Shown piece by piece: positions 1-14,962 of a stretch of 14,962 bases of DNA. The position numbers and the translations under genes were made by a program. The notes under the pieces were generated by a model, which did no database searches, was not told the origin of the DNA, and saw nothing but the letters and a program-made list of their open reading frames with translations. Every line of letters starts with the position of its first letter. The first letter of the stretch is position 1. Origin of the DNA: a virus. Its lineage: Duplodnaviria; Heunggongvirae; Uroviricota; Caudoviricetes. The stretch lies in the IMG/VR virus record IMGVR_UViG_2529293000_000008, one strand, 5' to 3'.

Positions 1-165
1 ATGGCAAAGCCGATCATCACGCTCAATGGCCTAAAAATCGTCATTATGTTGGGAATGCTGGTCATTATTCTCTGCGGTATCCGTTTTGCCGCCGAGATCA
101 TCGTGCCGTTTATTCTCGCATTATTTATTGCTGTTATATATAACTTATTTCGCATAACACATTGA
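1..165 (+). pseudogene. tqsA: 5' fragment of a host inner-membrane transporter gene (AI-2E/PerM family, TqsA/YdgG-like), truncated and fused to foreign sequence at the island junction
   Basis: ORF starts at nt 1 and encodes [46 protein letters not shown], a hydrophobic transmembrane N-terminus that matches TqsA/YdgG as I recall it (not searched). After about codon 46 it continues as YNLFRITH and stops at 163-165, so only a 54-codon fusion remains. Confidence 0.45.
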
Positions 166-344
166 TTTAATTAAATAATTAACACCGCAAAAAGTGCCAA
201 AAATCGCAAAATGACTACACCAGTGACTACACCGTTCGGTGCACTGTATGAAACAACGTGGAACAAATAGACACAAGAAATATACAGGCGGATCATCTTT
301 CCAGGGGGAAGCACACCAATTCATGAGGGGCGTTAATGTCGATA

Positions 345-609
345 TGGGGATCCCCACCTACCGGAATTTTTTTCCGGTTAAACGTTAATCAGGCTGGTGG
401 GCTTTACCTGTTCGGTAGGTGTTATGATTATCGTAATACCTTTCCCCCAATGGGGTAAAAGCATCAACCGTAACGAAAGTCGTTATGGTTGCCACTGATA
501 CCCCAAATTTGGGTATCACGAGTAAGCCCCAAAATCTGGGTGTTACTCTTACTACCCAAACTACGGGTAGTTTCCGTAGTTTCATGGTCGAGTTGCAGAT
601 CTGCAACTC
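345..609. repeat. Cluster of perfect and near-perfect palindromes in non-coding DNA beside the island junction (function unknown; candidate packaging or recombination site)
   Basis: Read directly: tggggatcccca 345-356; ccggaatttttttccgg 361-377; 9 bp inverted repeat cacctaccg 355-363 with cggtaggtg 413-421; cccccaatgggg 444-455; cccaaatttggg 502-513; ccccaaaatctggg 527-540; aactacgg/ccgtagtt 559-581; 20 bp perfect palindrome gagttgcagatctgcaactc 590-609. Confidence 0.5.
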
Positions 610-863
610 CCCCATTAACCACAGGCGAATTTCCGCCTTCGGTCATTCCTTAATCATCTGCGTAATCATAATGATTATTCAGCAAGCGCAATTTTGCGCT
701 TTGCTTAAAGTTCAGCGAGTTACCGCGCCGACTTCCTCAAATTGAGGTTTCCGAAAATATCAGCGGGTTAGCGATTAAGCTGACCATTAATTAAACTGCG
801 AAAATGTCGTAGTTGTGAGGGGTGTAGCCAACCCATTTTTGGGCCGTCGGGAATATCAACCAG

Positions 864-1145
864 TTACCGCCGCAACCGCTCCGGCTTCTTCCAGTGGTAC
901 GTTATTTTCTCCTTCTCCCGATACATCTCCACGCGGCGACGGTAGGCCAGCAACTCAAGAACTCTGGTTCGTATGTTGCGCATATCCACGCCATTAAGTT
1001 CTATACCATCACGGCGCATCACCTCAGCAACAACACGCGCATAGTTTTCGGCTGTCACGCTGTCCGGCTGCGTGGCCTGTTCGTCAGCCTGCTGGCTGAT
1101 TCCGGCAACGCGGCGGATTAATCCCGTTATTTCGGCTTCTGTCAT
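864..1145 (-). CDS. Hypothetical protein (93 aa) at the distal end of the packaging operon
   Basis: ATG at 1145 preceded by a GAGG Shine-Dalgarno; begins 14 nt after the TerL stop on the same strand; no recognisable motif. Confidence 0.5.
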   Translation of the reverse strand: MTEAEITGLIRRVAGISQQADEQATQPDSVTAENYARVVAEVMRRDGIELNGVDMRNIRTRVLELLAYRRRVEMYREKEKITYHWKKPERLRR

Positions 1146-1158
1146 GCTGCTGACCTCA

Positions 1159-2820
1159 TTACACCCCGCTAAATTCTTCCAGTTTCTGGCGGTGGCTGTC
1201 GCTTATATCAAAAGCAAAATCCTCATGCTCTGCCTGGAATGTACCAAACGCCATCAGCGCCGCCACGCTCGGGTCTATCTTGTTCGGTGATTTTTTCTTG
1301 TTCGGCTTGATATTGGCGTTCGCGTCACTCTGCATCACGACGTTACTCATCGACCAGGACAACACCGGATCGCCACGATGCACAATCACCCTGCGGTTAA
1401 CAAAAACTTCGAACGATTTCGCCGCCGGACTGAATCTGAGGTAGGTTTGCGGGAACGGCTCCACCTCAAAACCTGCCCCCTGTAATTGCGTTCTGAGATG
1501 CGTGGCGTTCCACGTATCAAAGCCCACCAGCCTGATATTAAATTTCTCCGCGTCCTGCATGATGTCATCTCTGATCCGGTCGTAATCAATGCAGTCGCCA
1601 GGCGTTGTGCGTATCCAGCCTGCTTTAGCCCACTGACGATAGATGGCGCGGTTTTTATTGGCGGGGTTCTGTAGCTGAAATTCCGGCAGATAGTGACGGG
1701 AAACCAGCATAATGGTTTTACCGACCGGAAAGGCATAGCACACGCTGGAAATATCGCTGGTTGATGATAAGTCCAGCCCCGCGTAACACTCCTGGCCGTG
1801 TAAATCTTCCTCCGTGAACGTTCCGGCACACTCAGCCCATGCGCCGTTACCCATCCACGGGGTAGCCCCCTGGCACCAGATATTAAATCGCTTTGTCATC
1901 ATCTCCACCCACTGCGACGGAATACCCCGCGCTTTCTGGATGGTTGAGGCCAGTTTTTCACGATCGACGGAAACATCAATATTAGGGTTCGCCTTTATCC
2001 ACATCGCCGGATCATCAACCTCGTTTTCGTCGTCCAGTTCGTAAATCAGTACAAAAATTGAATCGTTAACCTCTTCGCCGTCCAGGATCTGGCAGCAATA
2101 ATCATAGTGCTGCTTACAGGCTGAAACGACGTTGCTGCCTGATGTGGTAATGGCAAATAACAGCCCTTCGGGACGTGCGCCCATCCCCAGCTCAAGCGCG
2201 GAATAAACGCCGTTATCGGGGTGCAAGTGGTATTCGTCCACGATGGAAAGGCTGGGGTTTGTTCCCTCGATGGTTGCCGCTTTTGCTGCCAGCGGCTTTA
2301 ACAGGCTGTTGCTTTTCGGGTGTATCACCTTATGCGCCTGAATATTCACCCGCCTGCGTAACGGTCGGGATAAAAGGCACATCTGACGCGCATCATCAAA
2401 GACGATCCGCGCCTGGTCACGGCTCACCGCTGCGGTGTAGATATCCTGCTGACCGTTCTCCATAATCAGAAACCAGTTAGCCAGAATCGCGGCGGTCGTG
2501 GATTTCGCATTTTTGCGCGGCACTTCGATAAAGGCGCTCGTGTATTTGCGCCGTCCGGTGGCCTTAACCTTAAAGCCGAGGATGCACGCAAAGGCGAACT
2601 GCTGCCACGGCTCCAGCTCAATGGGTCTGCCACGCATCGGTCCTTTTACGTGCGGGCACACCCTGGAAAAGGCAATAAACCGCTCCACAACCTCACGATC
2701 GAACGTGTAAAGGGGGCTTTTAAGGTCCGAAAAGTACCGTTTAACGGCCTGTTTCAGCCGTTTACAGGCCGGAATTTTGCCCGTTTTTACGTCTTCTGCG
2801 TACTTATTCCAGGCGGTCAA
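1159..2820 (-). CDS. terL: Terminase large subunit (TerL)
   Basis: 553 aa; terminase-type deviant P-loop (PRKNAKST), size and overall pattern typical of TerL; TTG start at 2820 preceded by GAGGA; overlaps the TerS 3' end, consistent with translational coupling. Confidence 0.9.
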   Translation of the reverse strand: MTAWNKYAEDVKTGKIPACKRLKQAVKRYFSDLKSPLYTFDREVVERFIAFSRVCPHVKGPMRGRPIELEPWQQFAFACILGFKVKATGRRKYTSAFIEVPRKNAKSTTAAILANWFLIMENGQQDIYTAAVSRDQARIVFDDARQMCLLSRPLRRRVNIQAHKVIHPKSNSLLKPLAAKAATIEGTNPSLSIVDEYHLHPDNGVYSALELGMGARPEGLLFAITTSGSNVVSACKQHYDYCCQILDGEEVNDSIFVLIYELDDENEVDDPAMWIKANPNIDVSVDREKLASTIQKARGIPSQWVEMMTKRFNIWCQGATPWMGNGAWAECAGTFTEEDLHGQECYAGLDLSSTSDISSVCYAFPVGKTIMLVSRHYLPEFQLQNPANKNRAIYRQWAKAGWIRTTPGDCIDYDRIRDDIMQDAEKFNIRLVGFDTWNATHLRTQLQGAGFEVEPFPQTYLRFSPAAKSFEVFVNRRVIVHRGDPVLSWSMSNVVMQSDANANIKPNKKKSPNKIDPSVAALMAFGTFQAEHEDFAFDISDSHRQKLEEFSGV

Positions 2821-3160
2821 GCTCGTCCTCTTCTTCTGTTTCCGGTGGGTTTTTACGGCGGCTTATCGGGTCAAAACCGAGCAAGGAGGCCATTTTTATC
2901 ATCACCCTTTCAGCGTCTGATTTCGCGCTTAATGCGGGGTTTCTGCTCTCGCCGCCCTGACTGTTAACAATGCTGAACCCGCGCGCCGCAAGGTCTGCGA
3001 CGGCTTTCCGGTAAATGGAGTAGTTGACACAATACAGTTCCAGATTGCTCCAGTCGGCGGGGGTCAGGTCTCCCCGTTCCGCAAGCTGCCGCGATTTTTC
3101 CCGCCACTGCTTCACGGCGATGTCATCCAGGTAGGCGGGGGCTTTCGGTGGTCTTGCCAT
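2804..3160 (-). CDS. terS: Terminase small subunit (P27-family-like TerS)
   Basis: 118 aa, MARPPKAPAYLDD...LELYCVNYSIYRKA pattern typical of P27-family small terminase; ATG at 3160; lies directly upstream of TerL. Confidence 0.8.
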   Translation of the reverse strand: MARPPKAPAYLDDIAVKQWREKSRQLAERGDLTPADWSNLELYCVNYSIYRKAVADLAARGFSIVNSQGGESRNPALSAKSDAERVMIKMASLLGFDPISRRKNPPETEEEDELDRLE

Positions 3161-3282
3161 GCTTATTTTTCGTCAGATTATTTTTCAAAAAATTCCCGTG
3201 CATAAAAATTTGAGGAGGCGTTCGGTGCCCGGCGGGGTCGGGTTTGTCCTGAAAACGCCCCCCACCCCGCCATACAGCCTCA

Positions 3283-3465
3283 TCAGCGATTGCGGAAACA
3301 TTCCATAACCTCGCGGTCACGGTCGGTTAATCGCTTCGCTGTGATGCGTTCTGCGCGTCCTGACGCTTTATCTTTATGCCCTGTTTCCTGTGTCTTCCAT
3401 GCGTCACGCTGCCTTATAAGTCCACGGATAAGGCGGTTTTGTTCCCGCTCATTCATCAGCGTCAT
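3283..3465 (-). CDS. Possible small basic protein (about 60 aa) between HNH and TerS
   Basis: Internal ATG of the 3283..3687 ORF overlapping the HNH stop; Arg/Lys-rich; weak or no Shine-Dalgarno, so the call is tentative. Confidence 0.25.
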   Translation of the reverse strand: MTLMNEREQNRLIRGLIRQRDAWKTQETGHKDKASGRAERITAKRLTDRDREVMECFRNR

Positions 3466-3889
3466 ACATCCAGTTATTGCGGTTAGCGGCCCGTTCTTCA
3501 TCTTCACGAAATCCACCTGCGGCACGCTTGCTTTTTGTTGCCGGATCAAGCCATTTCGTTTTCTGGTTATGACACGCCTGACACAATGGCTGATGGTTCC
3601 ATTCGGGCCAGAAGAGAACATCATCGCCGCCATCGATGGGGATAATGTGATCCACCACCACGGCGGGCGTATATATCCCCTTCTCAAGGCATCGCACGCA
3701 TAACGGGTTTTTACTCAGATACATGGCGCGGTATTTGTCCCACTGTCTGGAGTACCCACGCGCGCGGCGGTGTCCTCGTCTGGCATCCTCTGCACGCCAT
3801 GCCGCCCGCCTGTGCTCCTCACACTTACCGGACTTAACGCGCCTGTTACAGCCTGGTTCTGTACATCGTCTTAATGGTTGCCACGGCAT
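3449..3889 (-). CDS. HNH endonuclease (terminase-associated)
   Basis: 146 aa with Cys-rich N-terminus (CTEPGCNRRVKSGKCEEH) and HNH core (DHIIPIDGG...NHQPLCQACHNQKT); sits immediately upstream of terS as in HK97-type cos packaging modules. Confidence 0.85.
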   Translation of the reverse strand: MPWQPLRRCTEPGCNRRVKSGKCEEHRRAAWRAEDARRGHRRARGYSRQWDKYRAMYLSKNPLCVRCLEKGIYTPAVVVDHIIPIDGGDDVLFWPEWNHQPLCQACHNQKTKWLDPATKSKRAAGGFREDEERAANRNNWMYDADE

Positions 3890-4182
3890 CAGTACACCCC
3901 CACATCACGGTAAGCCGTCCAGAGTGCGCCTATCGTCATGGGTACGCGCGTTTTTGCGTTATCCGCGACAATCTGGCGATTTTCATACAGGTGAGCGATA
4001 AACATCATGCAGCCAATCTTTATGGCTGGCGTGAACTCCAGCCCGTCATCAAAGCGCCTGCCTATGTGTATCTGGCACGCCTCAAGCGATGCGGCAATGT
4101 ATCCGCTGATTAACTGGTCTTCATCGTCGCCATCGATGCGGCAATGGAGTTTCACTTCTTCCAGGGTGATAAGTTCTGTCAT
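3889..4182 (-). CDS. Head-tail connector protein (gp6-like)
   Basis: 97 aa, MTELITLEEVKLHCRIDGDDEDQLISGYIAAS pattern typical of gp6-like connectors; ATG at 4182; its stop overlaps the HNH start by one base. Confidence 0.8.
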   Translation of the reverse strand: MTELITLEEVKLHCRIDGDDEDQLISGYIAASLEACQIHIGRRFDDGLEFTPAIKIGCMMFIAHLYENRQIVADNAKTRVPMTIGALWTAYRDVGVY

Positions 4183-4517
4183 TTTTCCGCGCCCTCACGA
4201 CAAAGAATTTCAAGGCGTGTCCTGGCGGCATCTGGCAGCGGTTGCCCGATGATATTCAGTACACGCCCCGCCAGCGGCCCCGTATTGACCTTTATCCGAC
4301 TGGTGGCGTTGATGTCCTTCCGGTAGCGTATCCATATCCTTACAGTTCCAGTCGCCAGCTCTGCACCTGATGAAATGGCCTCCTTGCTGCTGATCATGTT
4401 CACGCTTGCCCAGAGTGTGTGACCGTCCACCCACGTTTCGAGTATTTCGCCCGTCATGGCTCTGGTCTGTTTCAGGGTCTGAATCGTTACCCTGTCACGC
4501 AGTCGCCCTATGTTCAT
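4179..4517 (-). CDS. Head closure / head-tail joining protein (gp7- or SPP1 gp16-like)
   Basis: Start chosen at internal ATG 4517 (MNIGRLRDRVTIQ...) with a GGGAGA Shine-Dalgarno, overlapping the portal stop; IRYR and C-terminal pattern typical of head-closure proteins. Confidence 0.75.
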   Translation of the reverse strand: MNIGRLRDRVTIQTLKQTRAMTGEILETWVDGHTLWASVNMISSKEAISSGAELATGTVRIWIRYRKDINATSRIKVNTGPLAGRVLNIIGQPLPDAARTRLEILCREGAEK

Positions 4518-5725
4518 TCCGGTTTTTCTCCCTCGCTGATTTTTACTTCCTGTTTCCATGCCTGGCTGAACTCATCACCACCATCACGCGGTGACAGTCC
4601 TTCACGTTCGCGGGCTTCGTTCGGACACATAACGCCGGATTTGATGCCGCGCTCATAGGTGGCAAAGCGTTCGCCAGGTGTGGCCCGTAACAGGTCCGCG
4701 CTGTCAAACTCCACCTGATACCGGATACCAGGTACAGGCGAGGCCACCAGCAGGGCGTTTTTTATCTGCTGCTCAAAGTTCGCCAGCCACGGGCGCATCG
4801 TCATGGTGAGAAATGCGCGGCTTGCCTCGCTGAAATTGCTGTAGGTGCTGTTGCTGTATTCCTGCAAAAAAATCGGCGAGACGTTGAACATTCTGGCGAT
4901 GTCTTCAATGGTGAAGCGACGGGAGGCCAGCCATTCAGCATCCTGATTACTCATGCCCAGCTGCTGATAGCTCATACCCCCTTCAAGGATGGGCGTTTTT
5001 CCGGCGTTTCTGGCCCCTTTGTAGCGTTCCAGTGCGGCTAATGCCTGTTTGCCCTTCACGCCGTCCAGCCATTCGCCTGACGTGATAACCCCTGCCGCCA
5101 TCATGCCATCACGCATCACGCTCGCGCCGTGGCGTTGTTGGGCCAGCCCAAGCCCCAGCGATTCGCGGCAGATGGTTACAGGTGAGCGCCCCATAAAACC
5201 GTCATCCGTGGAGTAACGAAGGTGGAGAACCTCCCACGGTAAATAGTTGCGGGTGTTTCCGGTGTAGGCGTCAGTGATGCAGTAGCGCCAGTTATGCTCA
5301 CCTGTCTGCTCAACGTTCACCGACTGCGGCGGGTAAGGATGCAAAGCGACTGGAAAACCATCACGCCCCCACTGAATCACCGCATAAGCATTACCGTTTA
5401 ACAGGCAGTGGCGGATCATCATTCGCTTAAACTGGTAGGGGGTTTGCCATGCGTTCGGGCGCTCGTTGAGGATGTGATCGACCGGATGAGAATCAAGCCA
5501 CTCTCGGGCCTCCTTCCCCTTCTCATTGCGTACCAGGTACAGGTAACACGGCATGGTAGCCACCGCCTCAGAGATGACCGTGACGGCGTTCATGACGGCG
5601 GGCAGTGATTCCGCTGTCCCCGATGATACGTACTCACCCGCCCCCGTGTTCGATGTGCCAGCCAGCGCCATAAACTCATCAAGCGTCATGCTGCGCTGCT
5701 CTTTTTTTCTTCTGAAAGGCCACAT
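4514..5725 (-). CDS. Portal protein (HK97 family)
   Basis: 403 aa with the LLNGNAYA motif and overall HK97-family portal pattern; ATG at 5725. Confidence 0.9.
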   Translation of the reverse strand: MWPFRRKKEQRSMTLDEFMALAGTSNTGAGEYVSSGTAESLPAVMNAVTVISEAVATMPCYLYLVRNEKGKEAREWLDSHPVDHILNERPNAWQTPYQFKRMMIRHCLLNGNAYAVIQWGRDGFPVALHPYPPQSVNVEQTGEHNWRYCITDAYTGNTRNYLPWEVLHLRYSTDDGFMGRSPVTICRESLGLGLAQQRHGASVMRDGMMAAGVITSGEWLDGVKGKQALAALERYKGARNAGKTPILEGGMSYQQLGMSNQDAEWLASRRFTIEDIARMFNVSPIFLQEYSNSTYSNFSEASRAFLTMTMRPWLANFEQQIKNALLVASPVPGIRYQVEFDSADLLRATPGERFATYERGIKSGVMCPNEAREREGLSPRDGGDEFSQAWKQEVKISEGEKPE

Positions 5726-5726
5726 A

Positions 5727-6299
5727 TCACACCCCCGCTAAATCCGCCCACCAGCGGCGATTATCCGCACGCGGCATTTTTTCGGGGTGCTGCTCGTACA
5801 GGGAGCGGCGGGCCAGCTCCACGCCGGAATCAGGGTAAGCCGGTACGGATGTAACGGTAATTTCGTATAGTTCCGCCACCAGCACGGTGCGCACGCATGG
5901 ATCTGTTGTGGTATCCCATACATCCTTACGGGAACGAAAGCCAAAGCTCATGCCGGATATATCACCTCGTTTAACCAGTTCGATAACGTCGCGCCCTGTA
6001 CTGGTATCCGGTGGGGTCAGTTCAAAGCGTAACCCTGTTTCGTCCTCTTCCAGTTTCAGCGTGCCGGAACGGGTGCGCCCCAGTAACATGCTGTGGTCAT
6101 GCTCATACAGGCCGCGAACGTCATTACCCGCCGCAAGCCACTCAGTAAACGCCCCCCGCTGGAATTTTTCGTAAAACTCCCCCCATAGCAGTTCTGAAAG
6201 CTTATCCCAGCGAACAACGTAGCCCGTCAGCGTACCGGCTCCGCTGGTAGTGATTTCCGATGACCGGATTTCCATACTCTTCATAATTTTTTCACCCAT
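5727..6299 (-). CDS. Prohead maturation protease (HK97 family)
   Basis: 190 aa with G-x-L-x-GY, HDHS..LGR and GMSFGF motifs typical of HK97 prohead proteases; the true start may be the internal ATG at 6284. Confidence 0.9.
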   Translation of the reverse strand: MGEKIMKSMEIRSSEITTSGAGTLTGYVVRWDKLSELLWGEFYEKFQRGAFTEWLAAGNDVRGLYEHDHSMLLGRTRSGTLKLEEDETGLRFELTPPDTSTGRDVIELVKRGDISGMSFGFRSRKDVWDTTTDPCVRTVLVAELYEITVTSVPAYPDSGVELARRSLYEQHPEKMPRADNRRWWADLAGV

Positions 6300-6308
6300 A
6301 AAACACTA

Positions 6309-6328
6309 AAGGGGCTTTTAAGCCCCTT
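6309..6328 (-). terminator. Stable hairpin between the capsid and protease genes (possible attenuator)
   Basis: aaggggcttttaagcccctt forms an 8 bp GC-rich stem with a 4 nt loop; on the minus-strand RNA it is followed by UAGUGUUUU just before the protease start. Confidence 0.4.
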
Positions 6329-6338
6329 CTGTATGCTG

Positions 6339-7496
6339 TTAATCGTCGTCCTGTGGCAGTTCCAGAATCTTGATCGCGTTCGAATCCACCACGCCACCGC
6401 CTAAATATTTCTGCGTGAAAATTTTGATGAAGCCCGGCTCTGTGAGGTTGTCCGGTCTGGTGCGAACACCTGTTTCGTGATCAACAATGTAGTAACCGCG
6501 TTTGAAGTCACCCAGGGCAATAACGTTATCAGGCATAAACTCCAGATATTCGACCGGAAGGCCCAGCAACGTATCAGGATCACCCGCCTGTAAACGGTCG
6601 CGCCAGATGTAATCACCGTTCGCGTTCTTCACCTTCTGAAGTTTTGCCGCCGTCGTGGAGTTAACCACCCAGACCGCGTTTTTGCGGTATTTTTTACGTA
6701 ATGCAAATTTCAGGTCGATCAGCGGGTCCGCAGATGTCCACGCCAGAGATTCGGAAGGTTTAATTACCTGCAACGTACCAAAATCACGCTCTTTGTCGTT
6801 CTTCTCTGCACGGGGTACGGATAAAAAACCTTTTGCTTTTTTGTCACCGTCGCCCACAACCAGATCGCTTTCTTCGGTTTCCGTGAAGGTGTCGCCAATC
6901 TCACCCGTCAGCCATGAAAGGATGTCCACATCGGAAAAATCCACGATTTCCTGTGTGGTGCGCGGGTACGCATAGACCGGATACAGCTTAATGCTCACCT
7001 CGTTAATCTGCGGGGTGCTGGTCTGTTCGCGTGTCTTACCCTCTTCACCGTGGTTAACGGTCGCACCGCCAGCGGAAACAAGCTGCTTAAACTCGTTGCT
7101 GCTGATTTTCTTCACGGTACAGATGCGGCGCATGGTGGATTCATCCGTCAGCATTCGCATGATTTCGGTGTTCAGTTCGGGGATAACGGTATAACCACCA
7201 TCAGCGGGAACGCCTGTACTTAATGCGCGGGTTTCACCTGTCAGAATGTAGTTGCGTAGTTCTGCGGGGTCAGTGGTCTGGCTGCTTTTACCTGGCTTGC
7301 TGCGCTCTTCGTCTGCAATGGCTTCAAGGCGGGAAATGTCTTTATCGAGGGATTCAGCTTTAGCGCGTAATTCGTCAAATTTTGCGCCCTCAGCATCGTT
7401 AAGACTGCGGTTTTCTTTTTCCGCGTTCTCCAGCATGTCGCGCATCTGATTTTTAATGGCGGTTTTCTGCTGGCGTAATTCGATTATTCTCGGCAT
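6339..7496 (-). CDS. Major capsid protein (HK97 fold) with N-terminal coiled-coil delta/scaffold domain
   Basis: Start taken at ATG 7496 (MPRIIELRQQ...); the track ORF extends to a GTG at 7544; N-terminal charged coiled-coil region followed by capsid-like body. Confidence 0.9.
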   Translation of the reverse strand: MPRIIELRQQKTAIKNQMRDMLENAEKENRSLNDAEGAKFDELRAKAESLDKDISRLEAIADEERSKPGKSSQTTDPAELRNYILTGETRALSTGVPADGGYTVIPELNTEIMRMLTDESTMRRICTVKKISSNEFKQLVSAGGATVNHGEEGKTREQTSTPQINEVSIKLYPVYAYPRTTQEIVDFSDVDILSWLTGEIGDTFTETEESDLVVGDGDKKAKGFLSVPRAEKNDKERDFGTLQVIKPSESLAWTSADPLIDLKFALRKKYRKNAVWVVNSTTAAKLQKVKNANGDYIWRDRLQAGDPDTLLGLPVEYLEFMPDNVIALGDFKRGYYIVDHETGVRTRPDNLTEPGFIKIFTQKYLGGGVVDSNAIKILELPQDDD

Positions 7497-7575
7497 AAAA
7501 AAAGTCCTGGGGTTAAGTAAGGAACTCCAGGACGCGGCAAACACTCAACCGTTTTTCATAAGGAAATCAGTAATC

Positions 7576-7625
7576 GCACCGATCGTTTTCCCGCCTGGTA
7601 ATGAATATTGGCGAGCACATTAACA
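7576..7625. promoter_or_regulatory. Long inverted repeat in the region upstream of the capsid operon
   Basis: ttttcccgcctggtaatg (7576-7593) and cattaacaggcgggaaaa (7608-7625) are reverse complements with one mismatch, separated by 14 bp. Confidence 0.4.
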
Positions 7626-7754
7626 GGCGGGAAAATGGCCCCAGCGTCCTGGCACCACGGGCGAGAATAATCATGATTCAGGTCGGGTAAAATATGCCGT
7701 TCCGGTCAGCGAGCAACGTGGAACAACCACGAACAAATAATTTACAAAACATGA

Positions 7755-7777
7755 CAAAAAGCCGGATTGCTCCGGCT
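7755..7777 (-). terminator. Intrinsic terminator after the PerC-like gene, separating the early/replication operon from the head operon
   Basis: Minus-strand RNA forms agccgga-gcaa-tccggct followed by UUUUU; located 7 nt downstream of the stop at 7784. Confidence 0.5.
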
Positions 7778-7783
7778 GTGTGA

Positions 7784-8059
7784 TTATCTGTCCTGGTAAT
7801 TTCGCCATATTTCATCGCTTACACCATCTATACCCATTTCAGCATAAGTGCGATCTACTGCCTTTCTCAGGTCTCCGAAGTTATCCGGCGGCTCCGGTGG
7901 CTTCTGTGCCTTCCTGGAACATTCCAGCCGTCGCATCGTAACCTGATGCCGTTCCTTGTCTGTCTCCACCAGCAGCATGACTTCACCCCATCGCGCCGAC
8001 GCCCTCCGGTAAAAGCCTTTCGCCTCGAGTTCTTCCGCTATGCGGTCATGTACCATCGC
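7784..8059 (-). CDS. PerC-family-like small transcriptional regulator
   Basis: Start chosen at internal ATG 8059 with strong GAGGGGG Shine-Dalgarno right after the SSB stop; MVHDRIAEELEAKGFYRRASARWGEV resembles the PerC/Pch signature as I recall it (not searched). Confidence 0.5.
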   Translation of the reverse strand, partial: AMVHDRIAEELEAKGFYRRASARWGEVMLLVETDKERHQVTMRRLECSRKAQKPPEPPDNFGDLRKAVDRTYAEMGIDGVSDEIWRNYQDR

Positions 8060-8066
8060 CACCCCC

Positions 8067-8477
8067 TCAGAACGGAATACCGTCACCGTAAGGGTCATCG
8101 CCTCCCGCTGGTGGCTGATTACCCTGTGTGCCTGTGGTTTTGCGTCTGTTCCCGCCAGGACGTGCCGCACGGGCACTGATTACGCTGTCTGCAATAACCT
8201 GATAACCCTGCCGCGTTTCCCCGTTCTGTCCCGTCCACTGGCTGACCTGCATCGTGCCGGATACGCTGGCAACGTCGCCTTTTTGATGTTTAGCCAGGAA
8301 GTCGGCCTGCTTACCAAATGCGATGACCGATAGCCATAACGTCGCCTGCCCATCCTGCGCCTGACTACATGGCAACGATACCGCCATACGCGCCAGCGTC
8401 ATCGGTGTGCCCTTACTGGTCTGTTTTACCTGCGGGTCGTCCACCAGCCGCCCGTAAGCCGCTATCTGTGCTGTCAT
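8067..8477 (-). CDS. ssb: Single-stranded DNA-binding protein (SSB-like)
   Basis: 136 aa; OB-fold-like core, Gly/Pro/Gln-rich linker and C-terminal acidic tip DDPYGDGIPF resembling the SSB DDDIPF tail; ATGA overlap with the upstream gene; GGAGAGG Shine-Dalgarno. Confidence 0.7.
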   Translation of the reverse strand: MTAQIAAYGRLVDDPQVKQTSKGTPMTLARMAVSLPCSQAQDGQATLWLSVIAFGKQADFLAKHQKGDVASVSGTMQVSQWTGQNGETRQGYQVIADSVISARAARPGGNRRKTTGTQGNQPPAGGDDPYGDGIPF

Positions 8478-8731
8478 GATTCCACCTCTCCGGTTTTAAC
8501 GTTGATGGTTGTTACCTGTTCCGCTTCGGCAATCTCCCGTTCTGTCAGCGTGGCAAAGTTTGCCGCCGCCGTGGTCATGAATGCGCTTATCAGGTCGGGA
8601 TGTGCTTTCGCGTATCCTTCCCCCGTGTTGCGGTCGATGATTTTTATCGCCACTCTCAGCCAGTGCTCTGTAAGGTCAATGGCGCGGTTATGCTGCTTCT
8701 TCTGATTATTAAGTTTTCCTGATGTGCGCAT
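8474..8731 (-). CDS. Hypothetical protein (85 aa)
   Basis: ATG at 8731, translationally coupled to ssb; no recognisable motif. Confidence 0.5.
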   Translation of the reverse strand: MRTSGKLNNQKKQHNRAIDLTEHWLRVAIKIIDRNTGEGYAKAHPDLISAFMTTAAANFATLTEREIAEAEQVTTINVKTGEVES

Positions 8732-8780
8732 TTTTATTTTTACCCCCTCGTTTAAAAAGTTTTGAGTTGTGCCTCCCCTT

Positions 8781-9006
8781 GTCTACCTTATCTACCTTAC
8801 TGGCTCTCATGCCAGTAATGGCGCGGCTTTCAGCGGGGTAGAGTGCTTTTATCCACTATCTACCCCGTATCTACCTCCCTGTCTGATTCAGGTAAAATCA
8901 GGTAGAGAGGGTAGATAGTAGGTAGACAGTGAAAAAAGGCTGTCTACCTAAGTTAATATACTGAATTAAATGTATTTTTCTTTACTCAGGTAGACAGGGT
9001 AGACAG
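8781..9006. repeat. Iteron array and AT-rich tract; putative origin of replication
   Basis: At least 11 copies of the heptamer GGTAGA(C/T/G) or its complement in both orientations: 8781-8787, 8790-8796, 8837-8843, 8858-8864, 8869-8875, 8901-8907, 8910-8916, 8921-8927, 8942-8948, and tandem GGTAGACAG at 8989-8997 and 8998-9006; AT-rich stretch 8950-8985; immediately 3' of the primase-helicase gene. Confidence 0.65.
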
Positions 9007-9019
9007 CCATTGCAAAAAA

Positions 9020-10774
9020 TTATAAAAACGCGTCGCAATCGTCTGTTGTTATTGCGTTAGTCTGCGTTACTCCCTTAACTTTCCGCGTAATATATTCATG
9101 TCCGTAAACTTTCGCGGCTGGCTTCATAGCCTTGCCAAAGTCATTTACGTTTAGCGGTTTGCTCCTGCCTGCGTACGCCATAAACGCCAGATAGACGCGG
9201 TAAAGGCTGTTTCTGGTCGTGTACTTCACTGAATCGCCACCGCCGCCCATCATCAGGCCGCGTGCTTCCTCCAGAAAATTCAGGAACTGGCAAAACTCAA
9301 TAACCGGATCCGTCTGTTGCTTTATTGCCAGTGCTTCATCACCGTCACGCTGTTCAATGAGTAAAGCCCGTGCCTTTTCAGGGTCGGCAAAGTTCGCCAG
9401 CAAGCGGCGGATAATCACAGGGATTTCAGCCGCGATCTTTTCCGGTAGCTCCCTGTCTTTTTCTGCCTCGCTTACGATGTTATCGAACCGGAATATCACC
9501 CGACGACGTGCCACACCTCCGGCCCGTTCGGTGAATATCATCGGATTGTTATTGGTTGCCAGCACCACCGCCCTGATTACCGCCGTAAAACGCTTTTCAT
9601 ATTTCGGGTTAATTTCCACGGGGTCGCCGCCCGTGATTTTCTTGATGCCCGTTCCTTCGCCTGTATATTTCGGCTGGTCTGCCAGGACGATAAGACGACT
9701 CCCGACAACCTGCGCACGCCCACCAGCATCATCAAGCGATGTCATTTCAGCGCTTACCGTGTTCTGTTTCCCTGCCAGAAGGCTGGCTATGTGTGTGAAT
9801 GTACTTTTACCGCTCCCGCCGTCTCCGGTGGCCTCAATAAACATCTGCCAGTCGTACCGGTTCGCCATAATCATGTACAGCGCGGCACATATACGCATCA
9901 TCTTGCGCGGGTCTTTTCCGGCTGCGTGCTCAAGCCATTTATGAAAGTTTGGCGCGTTATCGCGGATGTTCTCCCCTGGTGCTGGTGGCGTGTACTCAAT
10001 GCCGTTGTGCGTGGTGATCCAGTTCTCCGGCGTGTGCGGGGAAAATTCCCCCGTTTTCAGGTCAAGCGCACCATTGGCGAACGGCAGCAAATCGCCGGAC
10101 GGCTCGCCCATTGGTTCGGCAATAACTTTTAACGCTTCCACGGCGTTATTGATTACGCGCTTGCTGAAAGTGGCCCTGTGCTCTGAATAGATCGCCACCA
10201 TTTCGCGGCTAAGTTCCATTGTGCTGACCGGACACCATACCCCGCCGCGCCATACGTGAACGATTTCACTTTCAGGATGTACGCAAACGCCATCAAAGCG
10301 ATCGGCAAGCAGCTGCGCGCGCTCACTGTCCGCCATCTGCGAAAGTTGCGCCTTTTGCTTTACCGGAAGCTCAATGACCAGACCATCAGAAAGATTCTGG
10401 CGCTCACGGGCCAGATATTCGCGCCAGTTCTCCACCTTCTGACCGTGCATACCCTCAGGATAAAAATTTGCATCCTGTACGCCTGCCGCCGCCAGCTTCT
10501 GGCCAATCGCCTTTATCATTACTGGCGCAAGATATCCGGCCCTGAATATGCGCACGGATTTTCTGCCTTCCGGCACAATTTGCAGCTTATCCAGTTCTGA
10601 TAACTGCTGCTCCCCAAGCCACACAGGAGGCTCATTATCTCCGGCCATACGCGCATCATGTTCCTGCCATTGTTTCGCGTGTGCCCAGGCATCACTACCC
10701 GCAAAAATAATGACTTCTGTTCCTTTGTGTTTTATGCCGCGTGACTGCTGTTTTACGTTCGGTGCCAGTTTCAT
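9020..10774 (-). CDS. Replication initiator: P4/D5-type primase-helicase (Pri-Rep)
   Basis: 584 aa with Walker A GDGGSGKST and a Walker B-like RLIVLADQP segment in the C-terminal half, as in P4-alpha/D5-like helicases; ATGA coupling with the upstream ORF; AGGGGT Shine-Dalgarno. Confidence 0.85.
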   Translation of the reverse strand: MKLAPNVKQQSRGIKHKGTEVIIFAGSDAWAHAKQWQEHDARMAGDNEPPVWLGEQQLSELDKLQIVPEGRKSVRIFRAGYLAPVMIKAIGQKLAAAGVQDANFYPEGMHGQKVENWREYLARERQNLSDGLVIELPVKQKAQLSQMADSERAQLLADRFDGVCVHPESEIVHVWRGGVWCPVSTMELSREMVAIYSEHRATFSKRVINNAVEALKVIAEPMGEPSGDLLPFANGALDLKTGEFSPHTPENWITTHNGIEYTPPAPGENIRDNAPNFHKWLEHAAGKDPRKMMRICAALYMIMANRYDWQMFIEATGDGGSGKSTFTHIASLLAGKQNTVSAEMTSLDDAGGRAQVVGSRLIVLADQPKYTGEGTGIKKITGGDPVEINPKYEKRFTAVIRAVVLATNNNPMIFTERAGGVARRRVIFRFDNIVSEAEKDRELPEKIAAEIPVIIRRLLANFADPEKARALLIEQRDGDEALAIKQQTDPVIEFCQFLNFLEEARGLMMGGGGDSVKYTTRNSLYRVYLAFMAYAGRSKPLNVNDFGKAMKPAAKVYGHEYITRKVKGVTQTNAITTDDCDAFL

Positions 10775-11070
10775 TTTTTACCCCTGAATCCTTTAATCAT
10801 GGTTTTCATCTTCTGAATATTGGCGCGTGCTTTCTCCCTGCTGGTGGGCACGTTACGCGGTACGGCCTGCACAAGAGAAAAATCACGGTCGAACTGATAA
10901 ACAGGCATCACGCAATCATATTCGTAGCCTTCACGACGGTAGGTTACGCGCCGTTCCTCCACGCCCTTAATCATTACCGTGCCGCCGTACTTATCGCGGT
11001 AAATATCACCGCGCATGAATTTAGTGCGAGTTTTGCCACTGGCAGTTAAGCCAGAATATTTAAGTTTCAT
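10771..11070 (-). CDS. Hypothetical protein (99 aa), translationally coupled to the primase gene
   Basis: ATG at 11070 with GGAG Shine-Dalgarno; its stop overlaps the primase ATG; no recognisable motif. Confidence 0.5.
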   Translation of the reverse strand: MKLKYSGLTASGKTRTKFMRGDIYRDKYGGTVMIKGVEERRVTYRREGYEYDCVMPVYQFDRDFSLVQAVPRNVPTSREKARANIQKMKTMIKGFRGKK

Positions 11071-11075
11071 TATTT

Positions 11076-11309
11076 TTATTCTCCGGTGTGGGGCGCTTTA
11101 TACTGGTCGTGTAATGTCTCTATTTCCTGCAACTCATTTATTACAGGCTCAAGAAGCGTTATTAATGCCGTGACAATCCTTGATTTCTGTTTATCACGTT
11201 CATTATCTCCAAGCGTTTCAAGACATATGCGCAATATTTCCAACATATTTTCACTGTGAGAAAGTGCAAGAAATGCGCGGTCTATTGTTTCGTGGTAAAT
11301 ATCACGCAT
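11076..11309 (-). CDS. Hypothetical protein (77 aa)
   Basis: ATG at 11309 with GGGGA Shine-Dalgarno; same strand and operon; no recognisable motif. Confidence 0.5.
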   Translation of the reverse strand: MRDIYHETIDRAFLALSHSENMLEILRICLETLGDNERDKQKSRIVTALITLLEPVINELQEIETLHDQYKAPHTGE

Positions 11310-11378
11310 ATTAATCCCCGTCCGTCGTTTTTCTTAAAATAACCTCTGTCACGAAATCAGCATAATCGGCGGCGATAT

Positions 11379-11531
11379 TCAGTACATCAAGCCCCGTTGA
11401 TTTATATTCTCTCGTGGAAAGTAAGAAAAAGCCGCTCTAATAAGCTCTGGCATTGACGAAAGCGCATCAGCCGCATCATCAGGAACGCCGGAAAATTCCT
11501 GTTTCAGGGAATTAAAACGATCATCACGCAT
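11379..11531 (-). CDS. Hypothetical small protein (50 aa), not in the supplied ORF track
   Basis: Hand-translated from the minus strand: ATG at 11531 preceded by AGGGGGG, overlapping the upstream stop by 8 nt; MRDDRFNSLKQEFSGVPDDAADALSSMPELIRAAFSYFPRENINQRGLMY then TGA. Confidence 0.35.
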   Translation of the reverse strand: MRDDRFNSLKQEFSGVPDDAADALSSMPELIRAAFSYFPRENINQRGLMY

Positions 11532-11889
11532 GTTTACCCCCCTGAATGACCTGATAACCGCAACTGGTCAGCAACTCGATAAATTCCGGCAGTGTGCCGA
11601 AACAGCAATCATCACGCAGCCGTTCGCAGGATACCTCGACGCCGTTTTCGTAGTGACTCACCATACATCCGGTAAAATGCAGATCATCATCGTGATGGCT
11701 CGTTGACGGCTTAATCAGTCGCGCACGTTCCGCCAGTTCCAGCAATGCTTCAACGCTTCCGGCAATTGCACCATCCGGCAGGTGATAATTACGCACTATG
11801 CGCCCGTTCTCCACATTGACCAGCAACTGCCCGGTAAATTTCTCGTCAAACTGAATGCTGTTAAGGTCAGAAATTGACAGGTTATGCAT
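11524..11889 (-). CDS. Hypothetical protein (121 aa)
   Basis: Start chosen at ATG 11889 (MHNLSISDL...) with AGGAGG Shine-Dalgarno, overlapping the upstream ORF by 8 nt; no recognisable motif. Confidence 0.55.
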   Translation of the reverse strand: MHNLSISDLNSIQFDEKFTGQLLVNVENGRIVRNYHLPDGAIAGSVEALLELAERARLIKPSTSHHDDDLHFTGCMVSHYENGVEVSCERLRDDCCFGTLPEFIELLTSCGYQVIQGGKHA

Positions 11890-12106
11890 GGTGCACCTCC
11901 TGCACATCAGCCATGATAATTTTTCCGGCCTTATCCAGTGCCTGATCGGCTTTTAGCTGCACAAATGCTAAATAATGGAAGATGCATTCTGATTCTCTGG
12001 CTGCGTGTTTATGCGCCCTGTCAGCAATAACAGAAATATCAATAAGCGCGTGCATCAGCGTAGTGAGCGCGGCGGCTGCTGCGTCCGGTGTGGTTTTATT
12101 GCACAT
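11882..12106 (-). CDS. Hypothetical protein (74 aa)
   Basis: ATG at 12106 with AGGGGG Shine-Dalgarno; overlaps the upstream ORF stop. Confidence 0.5.
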   Translation of the reverse strand: MCNKTTPDAAAAALTTLMHALIDISVIADRAHKHAARESECIFHYLAFVQLKADQALDKAGKIIMADVQEVHHA

Positions 12107-12302
12107 GGCCTACCCCCTGGCGAATACGGGCAGCGAATACCATCACGCAGCCATCAGGAGATTGCTGACGCGCTTCCTGTTCGCTGGTGGCCTCGATGGT
12201 AATCACGCGCGGTTGTGCCGTGCTCAGGGCGATAAAACGCCAGATGTATTTATTCAGGTCGTGCGAATCCCGCCCTTGCGGGTGTGTGGTATGATTTCTC
12301 AT
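12096..12302 (-). CDS. Hypothetical protein (68 aa), first gene of the small-ORF operon
   Basis: 3' portion of the long 12096..13124 track ORF; internal ATG at 12302 with GAGG Shine-Dalgarno; the upstream part of the track ORF crosses the promoter/operator region and is judged spurious. Confidence 0.45.
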   Translation of the reverse strand: MRNHTTHPQGRDSHDLNKYIWRFIALSTAQPRVITIEATSEQEARQQSPDGCVMVFAARIRQGVGHVQ

Positions 12303-12399
12303 AGCTACCTCGATACTTTCGCTATCGTTGGTGGTTAGAAGCCCCGTTACTGCTCCTACAGTGCGGGGTTTCGTCGTTTCTGTGCCTTTCATCAACAAG

Positions 12400-12480
12400 G
12401 TGTAAGACACAATGTAAAACAATGGTGTCTTACACGTCAACCCTTCAAAATATTTTTTTTTCGTGTATATTGTCTTACAC
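12400..12480. promoter_or_regulatory. Divergent promoter region with three operator-like GTGT-N3-ACAC sites
   Basis: GTGTAAGACAC at 12400-12410, its reverse complement GTGTCTTACAC at 12425-12435, and tTGTCTTACAC at 12470-12480; a T-run and TATATT lie between sites 2 and 3; sits between minus-strand and plus-strand operons. Confidence 0.55.
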
Positions 12481-12501
12481 CAAAAACATGAGGGGTTAAA
12501 C

Positions 12502-12681
12502 ATGGCAACGGGTCCAAAGAATGCAAAATCACAATCTGTAACTGCACGTATTGCCCATGAAATTATTGAAGGCATGGAGAACGTGAAAGAAGAAGGCGAA
12601 AGCACGGGACAGTTTATAAACGCAGCCATGCGCGGCGAAATCAAACGCCGCCAGCGCCGCAAGGCCAAAGAACCAGAGTAA
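12502..12681 (+). CDS. Small DNA-binding protein, likely ribbon-helix-helix (CopG/Arc/MetJ-like) regulator
   Basis: 59 aa; ATG at 12502 with GAGGGG Shine-Dalgarno 6 nt upstream; SVTARIAHEIIEGMENVKEEGESTGQFINAAMRGEI fits a beta-strand, helix, G-x-S/T turn, helix RHH layout; basic C-terminal tail; opposite strand to the rest of the island. Confidence 0.5.
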   Translation: MATGPKNAKSQSVTARIAHEIIEGMENVKEEGESTGQFINAAMRGEIKRRQRRKAKEPE

Positions 12682-12738
12682 TCACCATCAGCGCCGTGGT
12701 GTAAGGTATTACGGCGCATTGCTATGCAGGACAACACA

Positions 12739-12912
12739 ATGACCGATAAAGAATTGACCAAAACATTATCACCGGCACGGAAAAGACGGCGCAGAAAGAT
12801 AGAACATGAATCAGAAAGATTCGCGCCATGTGCTTTTGCCCTTGAGCAATTCCTTAAAGAGTACAGGGAAAAGCGCTCATTGCAGGTATGGCAACGAACT
12901 GAACCAGACTGA
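12739..12912 (+). CDS. Hypothetical small basic protein (57 aa), second gene of the plus-strand operon
   Basis: ATG at 12739 with weak AGGA Shine-Dalgarno; contains a KRRRRK stretch; followed by an intrinsic terminator. Confidence 0.35.
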   Translation: MTDKELTKTLSPARKRRRRKIEHESERFAPCAFALEQFLKEYREKRSLQVWQRTEPD

Positions 12913-13009
12913 TTGCATTGCCCACCAGCCTGATAGCGGCTATCATCCCCGTGCTTATGTTTGGGATCACACACACAAACGGCGCAGCGGGTTATCTGTT
13001 CAGAAAGGC

Positions 13010-13037
13010 GGCTCCATTTCGGGGCCGCTTTTTTTAT
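13010..13037 (+). terminator. Rho-independent terminator of the plus-strand regulatory operon
   Basis: gcggctcc-atttc-ggggccgc hairpin (8 bp stem with one G-U pair) followed by TTTTTTT. Confidence 0.6.
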
Positions 13038-13181
13038 GCCTGAAAAACCCCAATTTTGTGGTTTTCCAGTCTCACCAGGGCGAACGAATCCCCGCCCACG
13101 TTCTGGCGTATATTCAATCTTCATGGTTATAGCTCTGTGTTCAGATGATTGATGTGTGGCGGCTGTGTGCCGCCAGCGTGA

Positions 13182-13370
13182 TTAATGAACTGCCTTGCAG
13201 CTATCCTTCCAGGCCAGAACCTCGGATAAAGACCAGCCAACGGAACGACCGCCAAGTTTACGACGTGATGGGAATTGTCCGGCCTTTTCCAGGCGGTAGC
13301 GGCATGAGCGGCTAAGGCCTGTTAGCTTTTCGCATTCTTTTTCACGTATAAACCGATCAGTGCTTAACAC
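13182..13370 (-). CDS. alpA: AlpA-family transcriptional regulator / excisionase-like protein
   Basis: 62 aa; LTGLSRSCRYRLEKAGQFPSRRKLGGRSVGWSLSEVLAW matches the AlpA-family HTH pattern; GTG start at 13370 with AAGGGGG Shine-Dalgarno. Confidence 0.85.
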   Translation of the reverse strand: MLSTDRFIREKECEKLTGLSRSCRYRLEKAGQFPSRRKLGGRSVGWSLSEVLAWKDSCKAVH

Positions 13371-13652
13371 TATTGCCCCCTTTCGTTTCTTAAAGAGTTA
13401 TTTCGTGTTCTATTGCGTTGGGATGTGTCTGATTGTGTCAGGATGATTCAGAGTTGGCAAATGTTGAGGTCGTATGGTTTACAGAAACAGGAATAATCAG
13501 GATAAAATCATTTAAATTCATGTTAATACAAAGGCATAAAATATTGTTTCATGCCTTTTTTATCGCTATTTAAAGAGTGATTCGCTAGTGTATAAAAAAC
13601 CAGTAACACATTAAAAATCAGCTACTTATAAATCCGTACACTTTTTCGCCTC

Positions 13653-13727
13653 TTGTTCGTAGTTGTTCCGCATTGTTGCTCATTGTTGCATGTTGTATCT
13701 GTTCGCATATCCAGTATGCGCATACTG
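13653..13727. promoter_or_regulatory. Helically phased TTGTT repeats plus a 16 bp perfect palindrome between int and alpA
   Basis: TTGTT at about 13653, 13663, 13674, 13684 and 13692 (near 10 bp spacing), including tandem cattgttgc at 13671-13690; palindrome CAGTATGCGCATACTG at 13712-13727, 18 nt downstream of the int stop. Confidence 0.4.
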
Positions 13728-13744
13728 AAAAAACACGAAAAAAA

Positions 13745-14962
13745 TTATTTTCTTCTGGCTACTGGTAGCGTGGTTACGTTTTCATGTGTTCCCGCCAGTA
13801 TCCCTAACCGCTCCGTCCACATATCCAGCGCATTGCGTTTAGCATCCAGATAACGGGAATGATTATAAACTCGCTGCATTCCTGGCATCTGATGACCTGT
13901 AAGCTGCTCCACGACATGCGGATCAACGCCTAAATCGTTCAGCATGGTTGTAAAGGTGCGCCGGATGTCATGCAGTGACCAGTGAGGATGATTAAGCCTC
14001 CTGTGCGCTAATCTTCCATACTGCGATACGCTGGCCTCCTGTTTCGCTTCCCCCAGCAATAAGCCCGTGTGCCTGTTCTGCTCCACCAGCTGCGTGACGA
14101 ACGGCAGGATCGCTTCCGGTATGGGCCGGAATATTGCGACCTTCGTTTTGCTGTGCTCCTTCGGAACGGTCCATAGCATTTCCGTAAAATCCCACTCCCC
14201 GATCTCCGATAGCCTCAGTTCTACCGTCCTGGCTCCGAAGACAATCAGGAGGCGGATTAACGCGACGTAGTAAGGGGAAAATATTTTTTTGTCCAGTGCC
14301 TGCAATAATTCGCCAAGTTCTTTGTTACTTAAGACACGTTCGCTTATATCCGGTTTTTTCCCAACGTCCGCCACGTTCAGATCGTCCAGAACGTTGCTGA
14401 TTGCATAGCGCCGCCTACGGCAGAACTTAAGCGCCTGTTTGCACGCCTGTAGCACGAATCCGGCAGTAACAGGCGTTCGCTTTGCCACCTGGTCAAAACA
14501 GGCCAGCCAGTGCCGTAGCTCGCATTTATCCAGCGGCATAGCACCAATCTGCTGTATTACGTGATTATTAAGTCGCCTTTTCAGGGCGATATAATCCACG
14601 CGGTTTTCCTTTACGTAATACTCAAGCCAGTAGGTGAGCGCATCGCCAACCGTTACGGGCTTTAACGCTTCCTGTACGGTGTAATTCATCTCATGACGTG
14701 GATTTTTCCCCTCAGCCAGCCATGTGCGACACTGTGCGGCTTTTTCCCTGGCTGCTTTCAGGCTCAGATCAGGATAACTTCCCAGCTTAATGCGTTCGGG
14801 TCGTGTCTCCCTTCCCGTTCCGGCCCTGTATGTGAAATACCAGGTCAATTTCCCTGATGTTAAATATTTCACGCTCAGGTTTCCGCCATCACTATAAAAC
14901 GTGTTTTTCTCCGCTGGCTTACCATGAAGTTTCCTTAGCAAGGTATCGCTCAGTTTGTTCAT
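13745..14962 (-). CDS. int: Tyrosine recombinase / integrase (P4-like)
   Basis: 405 aa; N-terminal arm-binding-like region (LTSGKLTWYFTYRAG...LGSYPDLSLKAAREKA) and C-terminal catalytic region with HDIRRT and RVYNHSRY (His/Arg/Tyr signature); start codon lies at the window edge. Confidence 0.92.
   Translation of the reverse strand: MNKLSDTLLRKLHGKPAEKNTFYSDGGNLSVKYLTSGKLTWYFTYRAGTGRETRPERIKLGSYPDLSLKAAREKAAQCRTWLAEGKNPRHEMNYTVQEALKPVTVGDALTYWLEYYVKENRVDYIALKRRLNNHVIQQIGAMPLDKCELRHWLACFDQVAKRTPVTAGFVLQACKQALKFCRRRRYAISNVLDDLNVADVGKKPDISERVLSNKELGELLQALDKKIFSPYYVALIRLLIVFGARTVELRLSEIGEWDFTEMLWTVPKEHSKTKVAIFRPIPEAILPFVTQLVEQNRHTGLLLGEAKQEASVSQYGRLAHRRLNHPHWSLHDIRRTFTTMLNDLGVDPHVVEQLTGHQMPGMQRVYNHSRYLDAKRNALDMWTERLGILAGTHENVTTLPVARRK

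Follow-up and report, generated by a model that had tools for sequence, protein, structure and literature searches.

A PerC-family gene of a capsid-forming phage satellite travels with ssb and is probably an accessory modulator of the host

What does a PerC-family regulator do for a phage satellite that carries it between its replication genes and its capsid operon? We addressed this question in a stretch of 14,962 nucleotides (the window; IMG/VR record IMGVR_UViG_2529293000_000008, Caudoviricetes), in which a preliminary description had noted a PerC-like gene and suggested that its product might cross-talk with host gene expression or activate the satellite's own head operon. The gene is pchE, the group-3 PerC homologue of EcCIEDL933-type capsid-forming PICIs (cf-PICIs). 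Its product is probably an accessory modulator of the host that acts in trans and stands outside the packaging core.

On its genes, we class the window as a cf-PICI (Table 1). The hallmarks given in the cf-PICI paper, namely int with alpA and primase/replication genes, then capsid, protease, portal, connectors, HNH, TerS and TerL, no tail or lysis genes and a size of about 10-15 kb, are all found in the Pfam matches, the ORF order and the RefSeq annotation of a 99.97%-identical island; neither the ORFs nor Pfam revealed a tail or lysis gene in the window. That island lies in tqsA of strain CFSAN061761 and corresponds to positions 1-12107. Window positions 1-165 are a 5' fragment of tqsA, an AI-2 transporter gene that the island splits into two pseudogene fragments in CFSAN061761. 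The island is mosaic, since its alpA/int end (12108-14962) is only 93% identical to CFSAN061761, with a 221-nt gap. RefSeq marks a hypothetical gene at 11311-11531 as frameshifted. A 342-aa minus-strand ORF at 12096-13124 is probably no gene, because RefSeq shows other features in the equivalent region, namely Icd-like fragments and a plus-strand YlcI/YnfO-family gene; the plus-strand ORF at 12463-12681 of the window matches NF041551 (E=9e-18). Upstream of orf85, the gap at 8732-9019 contains the heptamer GTCTACC/GGTAGAC 10 times or more, on both strands, around a core of 41% GC, and looks like a PICI-type iteron origin. The sole Rfam match in the whole window at E<=1 (mir-3927, E=0.12) falls on the iteron palindrome and is spurious.

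Table 1. Features of the window that bear on pchE and its surroundings.
Feature	Position	Strand	Remarks
int	13745-14962	minus	
alpA	13182-13370	minus	
DUF4222 gene	10771-11070	minus	
D5-type primase	9020-10774	minus	
Iteron-rich gap, putative ori	8732-9019		between primase and orf85
orf85	8474-8731	minus	85 aa; phrog_1231 (E=2.5e-48), function unknown; RefSeq hypothetical protein
ssb	8067-8477	minus	Pfam SSB (E=4e-17); directly upstream of pchE
Shine-Dalgarno GAGGGGG of pchE	8062-8068	minus	read from sequence; 5 nt before ATG
pchE	7784-8056	minus	ATG 8056-8054, TAA 7786-7784; 90 aa; Pfam and RefSeq
Intrinsic-terminator-like hairpin AGCCGGAGCAATCCGGCT with T5	7755-7777	minus	hairpin 7777-7760, T5 7759-7755; terminator scan
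Capsid operon leader/intergenic region	7497-7754	minus	context; no demonstrated PchE target
Conserved 36-nt block	7749-7714	minus	just downstream of pchE terminator
Weak promoter-like TTTACC-N16-TATTCT	7691-7664	minus	
18-nt inverted repeat	7635-7618 / 7603-7586	minus	
Terminator-like hairpin with T7	7533-7504, T7 to 7497	minus	abuts capsid ATG at 7496
capsid	6339-7496	minus	
protease, portal, head closure, connector, HNH, TerS	2804-6299	minus	
TerL	1159-2820	minus	

The ORF list of the window has a minus-strand ORF that ends at 7784, and translation of 7784-8059 gives 92 codons that read A-MVHDRIAEELEAKGFYRRASARW...QDR and stop (A, then MVHD...QDR). Because the first of these codons (8059-8057) is GCG (Ala), which is no start codon, and the gene starts at the following ATG, the product has 90 amino acids and not the 91 of the preliminary description. 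RefSeq gives the identical 273-nt CDS (WP_000233308.1, 'PerC family transcriptional regulator') in strains E110019 and CFSAN061761, and the Pfam PerC match starts from residue 2 of this 90-aa product, which speaks against longer starts. Starts at GTG 8176 (130 aa) and ATG 8098 (104 aa) were rejected for an out-of-frame overlap with ssb or for residues without counterpart in homologues, and GTG 8062 (92 aa) for ssb overlap or extra residues that homologues lack. Ten nucleotides separate ssb and pchE, and the Shine-Dalgarno sequence begins with bases 8068-8067, which also close the ssb stop TGA (8069-8067), an overlap that is compatible with translational coupling. GAGGGGG is invariant in the Sakai prophage-like element Sp7 and in E110019. 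The gene is intact in hundreds of E. coli genomes and under purifying selection, with a dN/dS between alleles of about 0.25 (from few pairwise comparisons with small substitution numbers).

Upstream, orf85 is the first gene past the putative ori and overlaps the ssb start by 4 nt; on the strength of such overlaps, orf85, ssb and pchE are presumed to form one transcription unit. Downstream, a hairpin with a 7-bp stem (5 GC pairs in the terminator scan) begins 6 nt past the pchE stop. This terminator is conserved in E110019 and in Sp7, which has two copies of it on either side of an inserted 74-aa ORF. The earlier placement of pchE as the last gene of the early/replication block, followed by a terminator, thus holds at the sequence level (Shine-Dalgarno sequence, ssb stop, hairpin and T5), and the predicted terminator divides pchE from the capsid/packaging operon. 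The E110019 copy (atypical EPEC; locus L001), whose pchE is 100% identical to that of the window, has a frameshifted prohead protease (7184-7755 of that locus) and a RepA helicase with an internal stop (10410-11816), and is likely a decaying island.

Assignment to the PerC/Pch family, made in the preliminary description from a motif, proved sound. A Pfam search, which had been proposed there as a check, placed PchE over its full length above the gathering score of PF06069 (E=7.6e-45; 151.6 bits against a cutoff of 22.6; profile positions 1-89 of 90), and phrog_994 matches at E=8e-46. The quoted motif is exact at residues 7-23 (AEELEAKG-F-YRRA-S-ARW) and amounts to the family core, because its positions are invariant or nearly so in an alignment of 54 sequences taken from 1.84 billion representatives. 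All core positions, defined as invariant or at least 90% conserved in that alignment, are present in PchE (A7, L10, E11, G14, R17, R18, A19, R22, W23, C46 and G75). The family is small: an exhaustive HMMER pass over the 1.84 billion cluster representatives yielded 98 clusters at E<=1e-3, and a word-indexed search returned close relatives of PchE only. The protein is 87/89 identical (about 97-98%) to ECs_1588, the PchE of E. coli O157:H7 Sakai, from which it differs by three amino acids over the full length; identity is 39-40% to EPEC PerC (pMAR2) and likewise to a 104-aa PchA/B/C-type protein. Near-identity to ECs_1588, the RefSeq annotation and the same position between ssb and capsid confirm that the gene is pchE of Pch group 3, already named and studied.

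The closest known system is Sp7 itself, a 15.46-kb element with int, primase, ssb, pchE and a head/terminase module, which we equate by size and gene content with EcCIEDL933, the prototype cf-PICI. Its pchE has the same length, ribosome-binding site, terminator and leader sequence as that of the window and likewise lies after ssb and before an HK97-type capsid operon; the flanks align base for base save for the insertion of ECs_1589, the 74-aa ORF between two terminator copies. The two elements differ in site, tqsA for the window and between roxA and phoQ for Sakai, and tblastn, at the thresholds used, did not detect the D5-type primase of the window in the Sakai element; the integrases are about 91% identical. 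The 74-aa ORF, which has no family match, directly follows pchE in Sp7 (L002, 12046-12440) and in an O157:H7 strain 2159 island (L025, 7678-7902). It is flanked by two near-identical terminator hairpins, an arrangement that resembles the capture of a small cassette at the terminator, and some O157 genomes have it annotated by PGAP as 'trigger factor'.

More distant relatives share the family and part with PchE in context and function. PerC of EPEC E2348/69 belongs to the same Pfam family and resembles PchE in size and conserved core (39% identity over 88 aa). It differs in being encoded on plasmid pMAR2 in the perABC operon, downstream of the AraC-type PerA, and in activating LEE1/ler. PchA/B/C (group 1, O157:H7 lambdoid prophages) have the N-terminal signature of the family and 39% identity, but are 104 aa long with a basic C-terminal tail; in the one EDL933 record covered, such a gene belongs to a lambdoid prophage, behind the lysis cassette, and not to a satellite. 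They are required for LEE expression, while PchE acts oppositely on adhesion, and they are the sole subgroup with a worked-out mechanism, in which LEE1 is activated by relief of H-NS/StpA/Hha silencing (PMC4764244). Even for group 1 a simple H-NS-binding model is not established, since H-NS did not co-precipitate with PchA in the work of Fukui et al.

Published work bears on the host cross-talk proposed earlier. In over-expression experiments, pchE lowers csgD, curli, biofilm and HEp-2 adhesion and raises flhDC and flagella/motility (PMC6265319, PMC7369912), which lends support to host cross-talk; all functional data on PchE come from such plasmid over-expression. Deletion of pchE has little effect and no adhesion phenotype, and native expression in O157 is low without induction and drops on SOS induction (PMC7369912). 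The idea that the gene switches on host virulence regulators does not transfer to PchE, because group 3, in contrast to PerC and PchA-C, reportedly does not activate LEE1/ler (PMC11773190, citing Porter 2005; PMC6265319, citing Iyoda & Watanabe 2004). Some E. coli PICIs encode PerC alleles (Fillol-Salom et al. 2018, PMC6092414), and PICI PerC homologues are treated as accessory genes (PMC11773190, PMC6092414). According to PMC11773190, the PerC-like genes of EcCIEDL933 and EcCICFT073 left LEE1-lacZ unaffected in Porter et al. 2005. The homologue EcCIMP1_025, which also sits on a PICI and is considered accessory, represses LEE1-lux in C. rodentium, and ANR-like behaviour was suggested for it (Schmidt et al. 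2025, PMC11773190); it differs in being about 40% identical to the EcCIEDL933 homologue, as the paper states, and in belonging to a PICI without a capsid module. The cf-PICI papers do not discuss pchE, and none of the papers listed by our literature search, which puts those that match most terms at the top, named cf-PICIs and pchE together.

The predicted fold of PchE offers a hint as to how such effects might arise. An AlphaFold2 model built on 54 sequences has a mean pLDDT of 83.8, with values above 90 at residues 11-50, and contains five helices (5-13, 16-29, 33-50, 60-74 and 79-88) arranged as a small TPR-like helical bundle, a kind of match that is generic for short helical bundles. The first three helices, which are modelled with confidence, look like a 1.5-repeat TPR or ANR-like interaction module. 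Searches of the PDB by sequence with PchE and the family profile gave chance matches only (E>=0.26), and we recognised no DNA-binding domain (HTH or similar) in PchE by sequence or fold. The ANR proteins Aar and Rnr are likewise small and helical, and PerC has their spacing A-x3-E-x7-A-x3-W and a conserved Cys after helix 3 (PMC4983702; Aar sequence). The NCBIfam ANR model (NF033650) matches PchE at residues 7-51 with 16.4 bits (E=0.006), below its curated cutoff of 32 bits, and matches 51 of the 54 PerC-family members, in every case sub-threshold (best E=3e-7). Aar itself gave no BLASTP alignment, and hhalign returned E=0.014-0.083; the comparison with Aar and its clade was not significant. 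A relationship between PerC and ANR is therefore possible but not established, and we do not file PchE as an ANR.

Between pchE and the capsid gene lies the leader of the capsid operon. It is unusually structured (RNA fold z=-4.96), and the hairpin and T7 in front of the capsid gene could act as an attenuator or antitermination element; within this hairpin the sole AGGA is buried. A sigma-70 scan of the minus strand at 7300-9100 found no consensus promoter, and the pchE-capsid leader had no Rfam match at E<=1. Head operon and leader have 48-55% GC, with a range of 48-59% given across the head operon. Since they are not AT-rich, H-NS silencing is not expected there, and relief of such silencing at the island's own head operon was judged unlikely from this base composition.

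This capsid allele occurs in 358 of 5426 complete E. coli genomes, and capsid, leader, pchE and ssb are contiguous in 352 of these 358; the ssb-PerC module reaches far wider, to 863-1356 of the 5426. At the same attachment site, L025 has a PerC allele 89% identical to the PchE of the window, ahead of a different module with a lambda-like capsid, decoration protein and TerS, and lacks the 36-nt block that lies just past the pchE terminator in the window. Conversely, the HK97-type cf-PICI of strain 100117 (L024) has a ProQ/FinO-family gene and an 82-aa ORF in place of PerC, yet its 36-nt block is 35/36 identical while the remainder of its leader has diverged. This PerC-less arrangement occurs in 44 E. 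coli genomes. The 82-aa ORF was considered as a divergent PerC and rejected (hhalign probability 0.2%). Elsewhere the slot after ssb holds ProQ/FinO and then PerC (elements of E. albertii and E. ruysiae; in L003 the ProQ/FinO gene separates ssb from the PerC homologue) or PerC with an extra ORF (Sakai). The ProQ/FinO-family gene, for an RNA chaperone of 180 aa, lies at 9324-9866 in L024, 6462-6998 in L003 and 6462-7004 in L004, and such a satellite-borne protein may deserve separate study.

Beyond E. coli, a species-level scan with 13 closer PerC sequences as query found homologues in Enterobacterales only. It gave 21 loci, and the analysis covered 20 of them. Among these 20 loci from other genera, 8 (L005-L011, L022) have an SSB gene immediately before the PerC homologue. 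What follows varies. Accessory genes or the island end lie downstream in Kluyvera, Enterobacter and Shimwellia; another Enterobacter arrangement, matched by ORF layout in Buttiauxella, has the PerC homologue after ssb and before a weakly tape-measure-like gene. In Lonsdalea, Pantoea and Chimaeribacter the PerC homologue sits between a primase of about 930 aa and a tape-measure-like gene, with no ssb detected, and the ORF layout in Erwinia is the same. The tape-measure-like genes encode 580-1140 aa (TMP_3, E=3e-57 in L014); these loci, together with those of Enterobacter and Buttiauxella (L008, L012, L013, L014, L016 and L022, at about 4000-12100 in each), have no capsid or terminase genes within 7 kb. 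Only 2 of 50,697 phage records encode a PerC homologue.

Three observations are new here: the slot after ssb is variable, with PerC, ProQ/FinO plus PerC, or ProQ/FinO without PerC; PerC moves with ssb, ahead of unrelated downstream modules; and the conserved cis-block of the capsid operon is also found without PerC. It is the ssb-pchE pair that is conserved as a unit across satellites. Together, the variable slot, the linkage to ssb and the PerC-independent cis-block argue against a dedicated activator of the head operon, as evidence and not as proof and provided that the PerC-less islands are functional: PerC segregates with the ssb/replication module in a replaceable position.

We therefore weighed the host-directed reading against its competitors, beginning with the earlier proposal of head-operon activation. 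PchE could be the satellite's early-to-late switch, activating or de-silencing a capsid/packaging promoter within 7497-7754. Its gene marks the early/late boundary precisely, in the window as in other types of element, and stays next to the capsid region in the 352 genomes named above; the intergenic region of about 290 nt, with its weak promoter-like element and 36-nt block but no consensus sigma-70 promoter, might suit an activator-dependent promoter. Against this, L024 and 43 similar genomes retain block and head operon without PerC, L025 has PerC without block or this head module, several genera have accessory genes or the island end behind PerC, the base composition gives no cause to expect H-NS silencing, and phage genomes nearly lack PerC homologues. 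The comparative evidence thus disfavours head-operon activation by PchE, which we regard as decidedly unlikely. A pure ANR-type anti-activator, which binds an AraC/XylS-family activator and/or H-NS and never DNA and is in effect a repressor of virulence and adhesion, has been proposed before for EcCIMP1_025. The shared signature (which ends in R-x2-3-C), the three-helix N-terminus, the breadth of ANR matches, the repression of LEE1 by EcCIMP1_025 and the mostly repressive effect of over-expressed PchE on adhesins are in its favour. We nonetheless consider it unlikely for PchE: every ANR match falls under the NCBIfam cutoff, alignment to the Aar clade is not significant, PerC proteins have about 40 additional, conserved C-terminal residues without counterpart in ANRs, and ChIP places group-1 Pch at chromosomal loci, while H-NS was not co-precipitated with it.

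Two further readings carry less weight. PchE might be aimed at the helper phage, tuning its late/tail genes or its replication to the satellite's benefit. cf-PICIs take only tails from the helper (cf-PICI paper), pchE has its place in the block that is induced along with satellite replication, and the PerC-bearing EcCIMP1 affects helper replication and immunity, an effect that was not attributed to its PerC gene. This is very unlikely all the same, because satellites that package their DNA in very different ways, and so rely on different helpers, share the ssb-PerC module, and because uninduced O157 cells reportedly express pchE weakly and SOS induction lowers this expression (PMC7369912). That pchE is a hitch-hiking remnant without current function would fit the lack of a reported deletion phenotype and the replaceable slot; it is hardly credible given the dN/dS, the reading frame, ribosome-binding site and terminator kept intact across hundreds of genomes, and a family core conserved across Enterobacterales genera.

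The host-directed reading, which we favour, has its own difficulty: the linkage of pchE with the capsid lineage in 352 of 358 genomes would also be expected of a core gene and counts against an accessory role. On this favoured reading, PchE would be made along with the satellite's early and replication genes, to which the O157 data add a low constitutive level, and would act in trans on host transcription as an accessory modulator outside the core packaging programme. Because it has no recognisable DNA-binding domain and has TPR/ANR-like N-terminal helices, it would most likely remodel nucleoid-protein or regulator complexes at target promoters. Its models would be group-1 Pch, which displaces H-NS/StpA/Hha, and, by the same analogy, the ANR proteins, which bind H-NS and AraC-type activators (Aar binds H-NS and AggR; PMC5570504, PMC4983702). 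The outputs would be those reported, with csgD/curli and adhesion repressed, flhDC/motility raised and LEE1 not activated. We infer that PchE works as a small helical adaptor on complexes of host regulators or nucleoid proteins, which it modulates.

The gene itself is of little weight as a discovery: it is annotated automatically as PerC-family, phenotypes of its named homologue have been published, and the presence of PerC homologues in PICIs has been on record since 2018. What is gained, modestly, lies in the comparison. pchE occupies a replaceable regulator slot after ssb, which may hold PerC, ProQ/FinO or small ORFs, and it accompanies the replication module of AlpA-type satellites across Enterobacterales without being tied to the capsid leader. 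A wider conjecture, which we hold to be highly doubtful, is that the PerC family had its ancestral function in satellite/prophage early operons, as TPR/ANR-like adaptors that couple replication to the late/cargo module or manipulate the helper, with the LEE regulators PerC and PchA-C as later co-options; PchE would then be needed for efficient capsid-operon expression or transfer. For the virulence regulators PerC and Pch, the distribution of the family suggests that it is usually at home in phage satellites.
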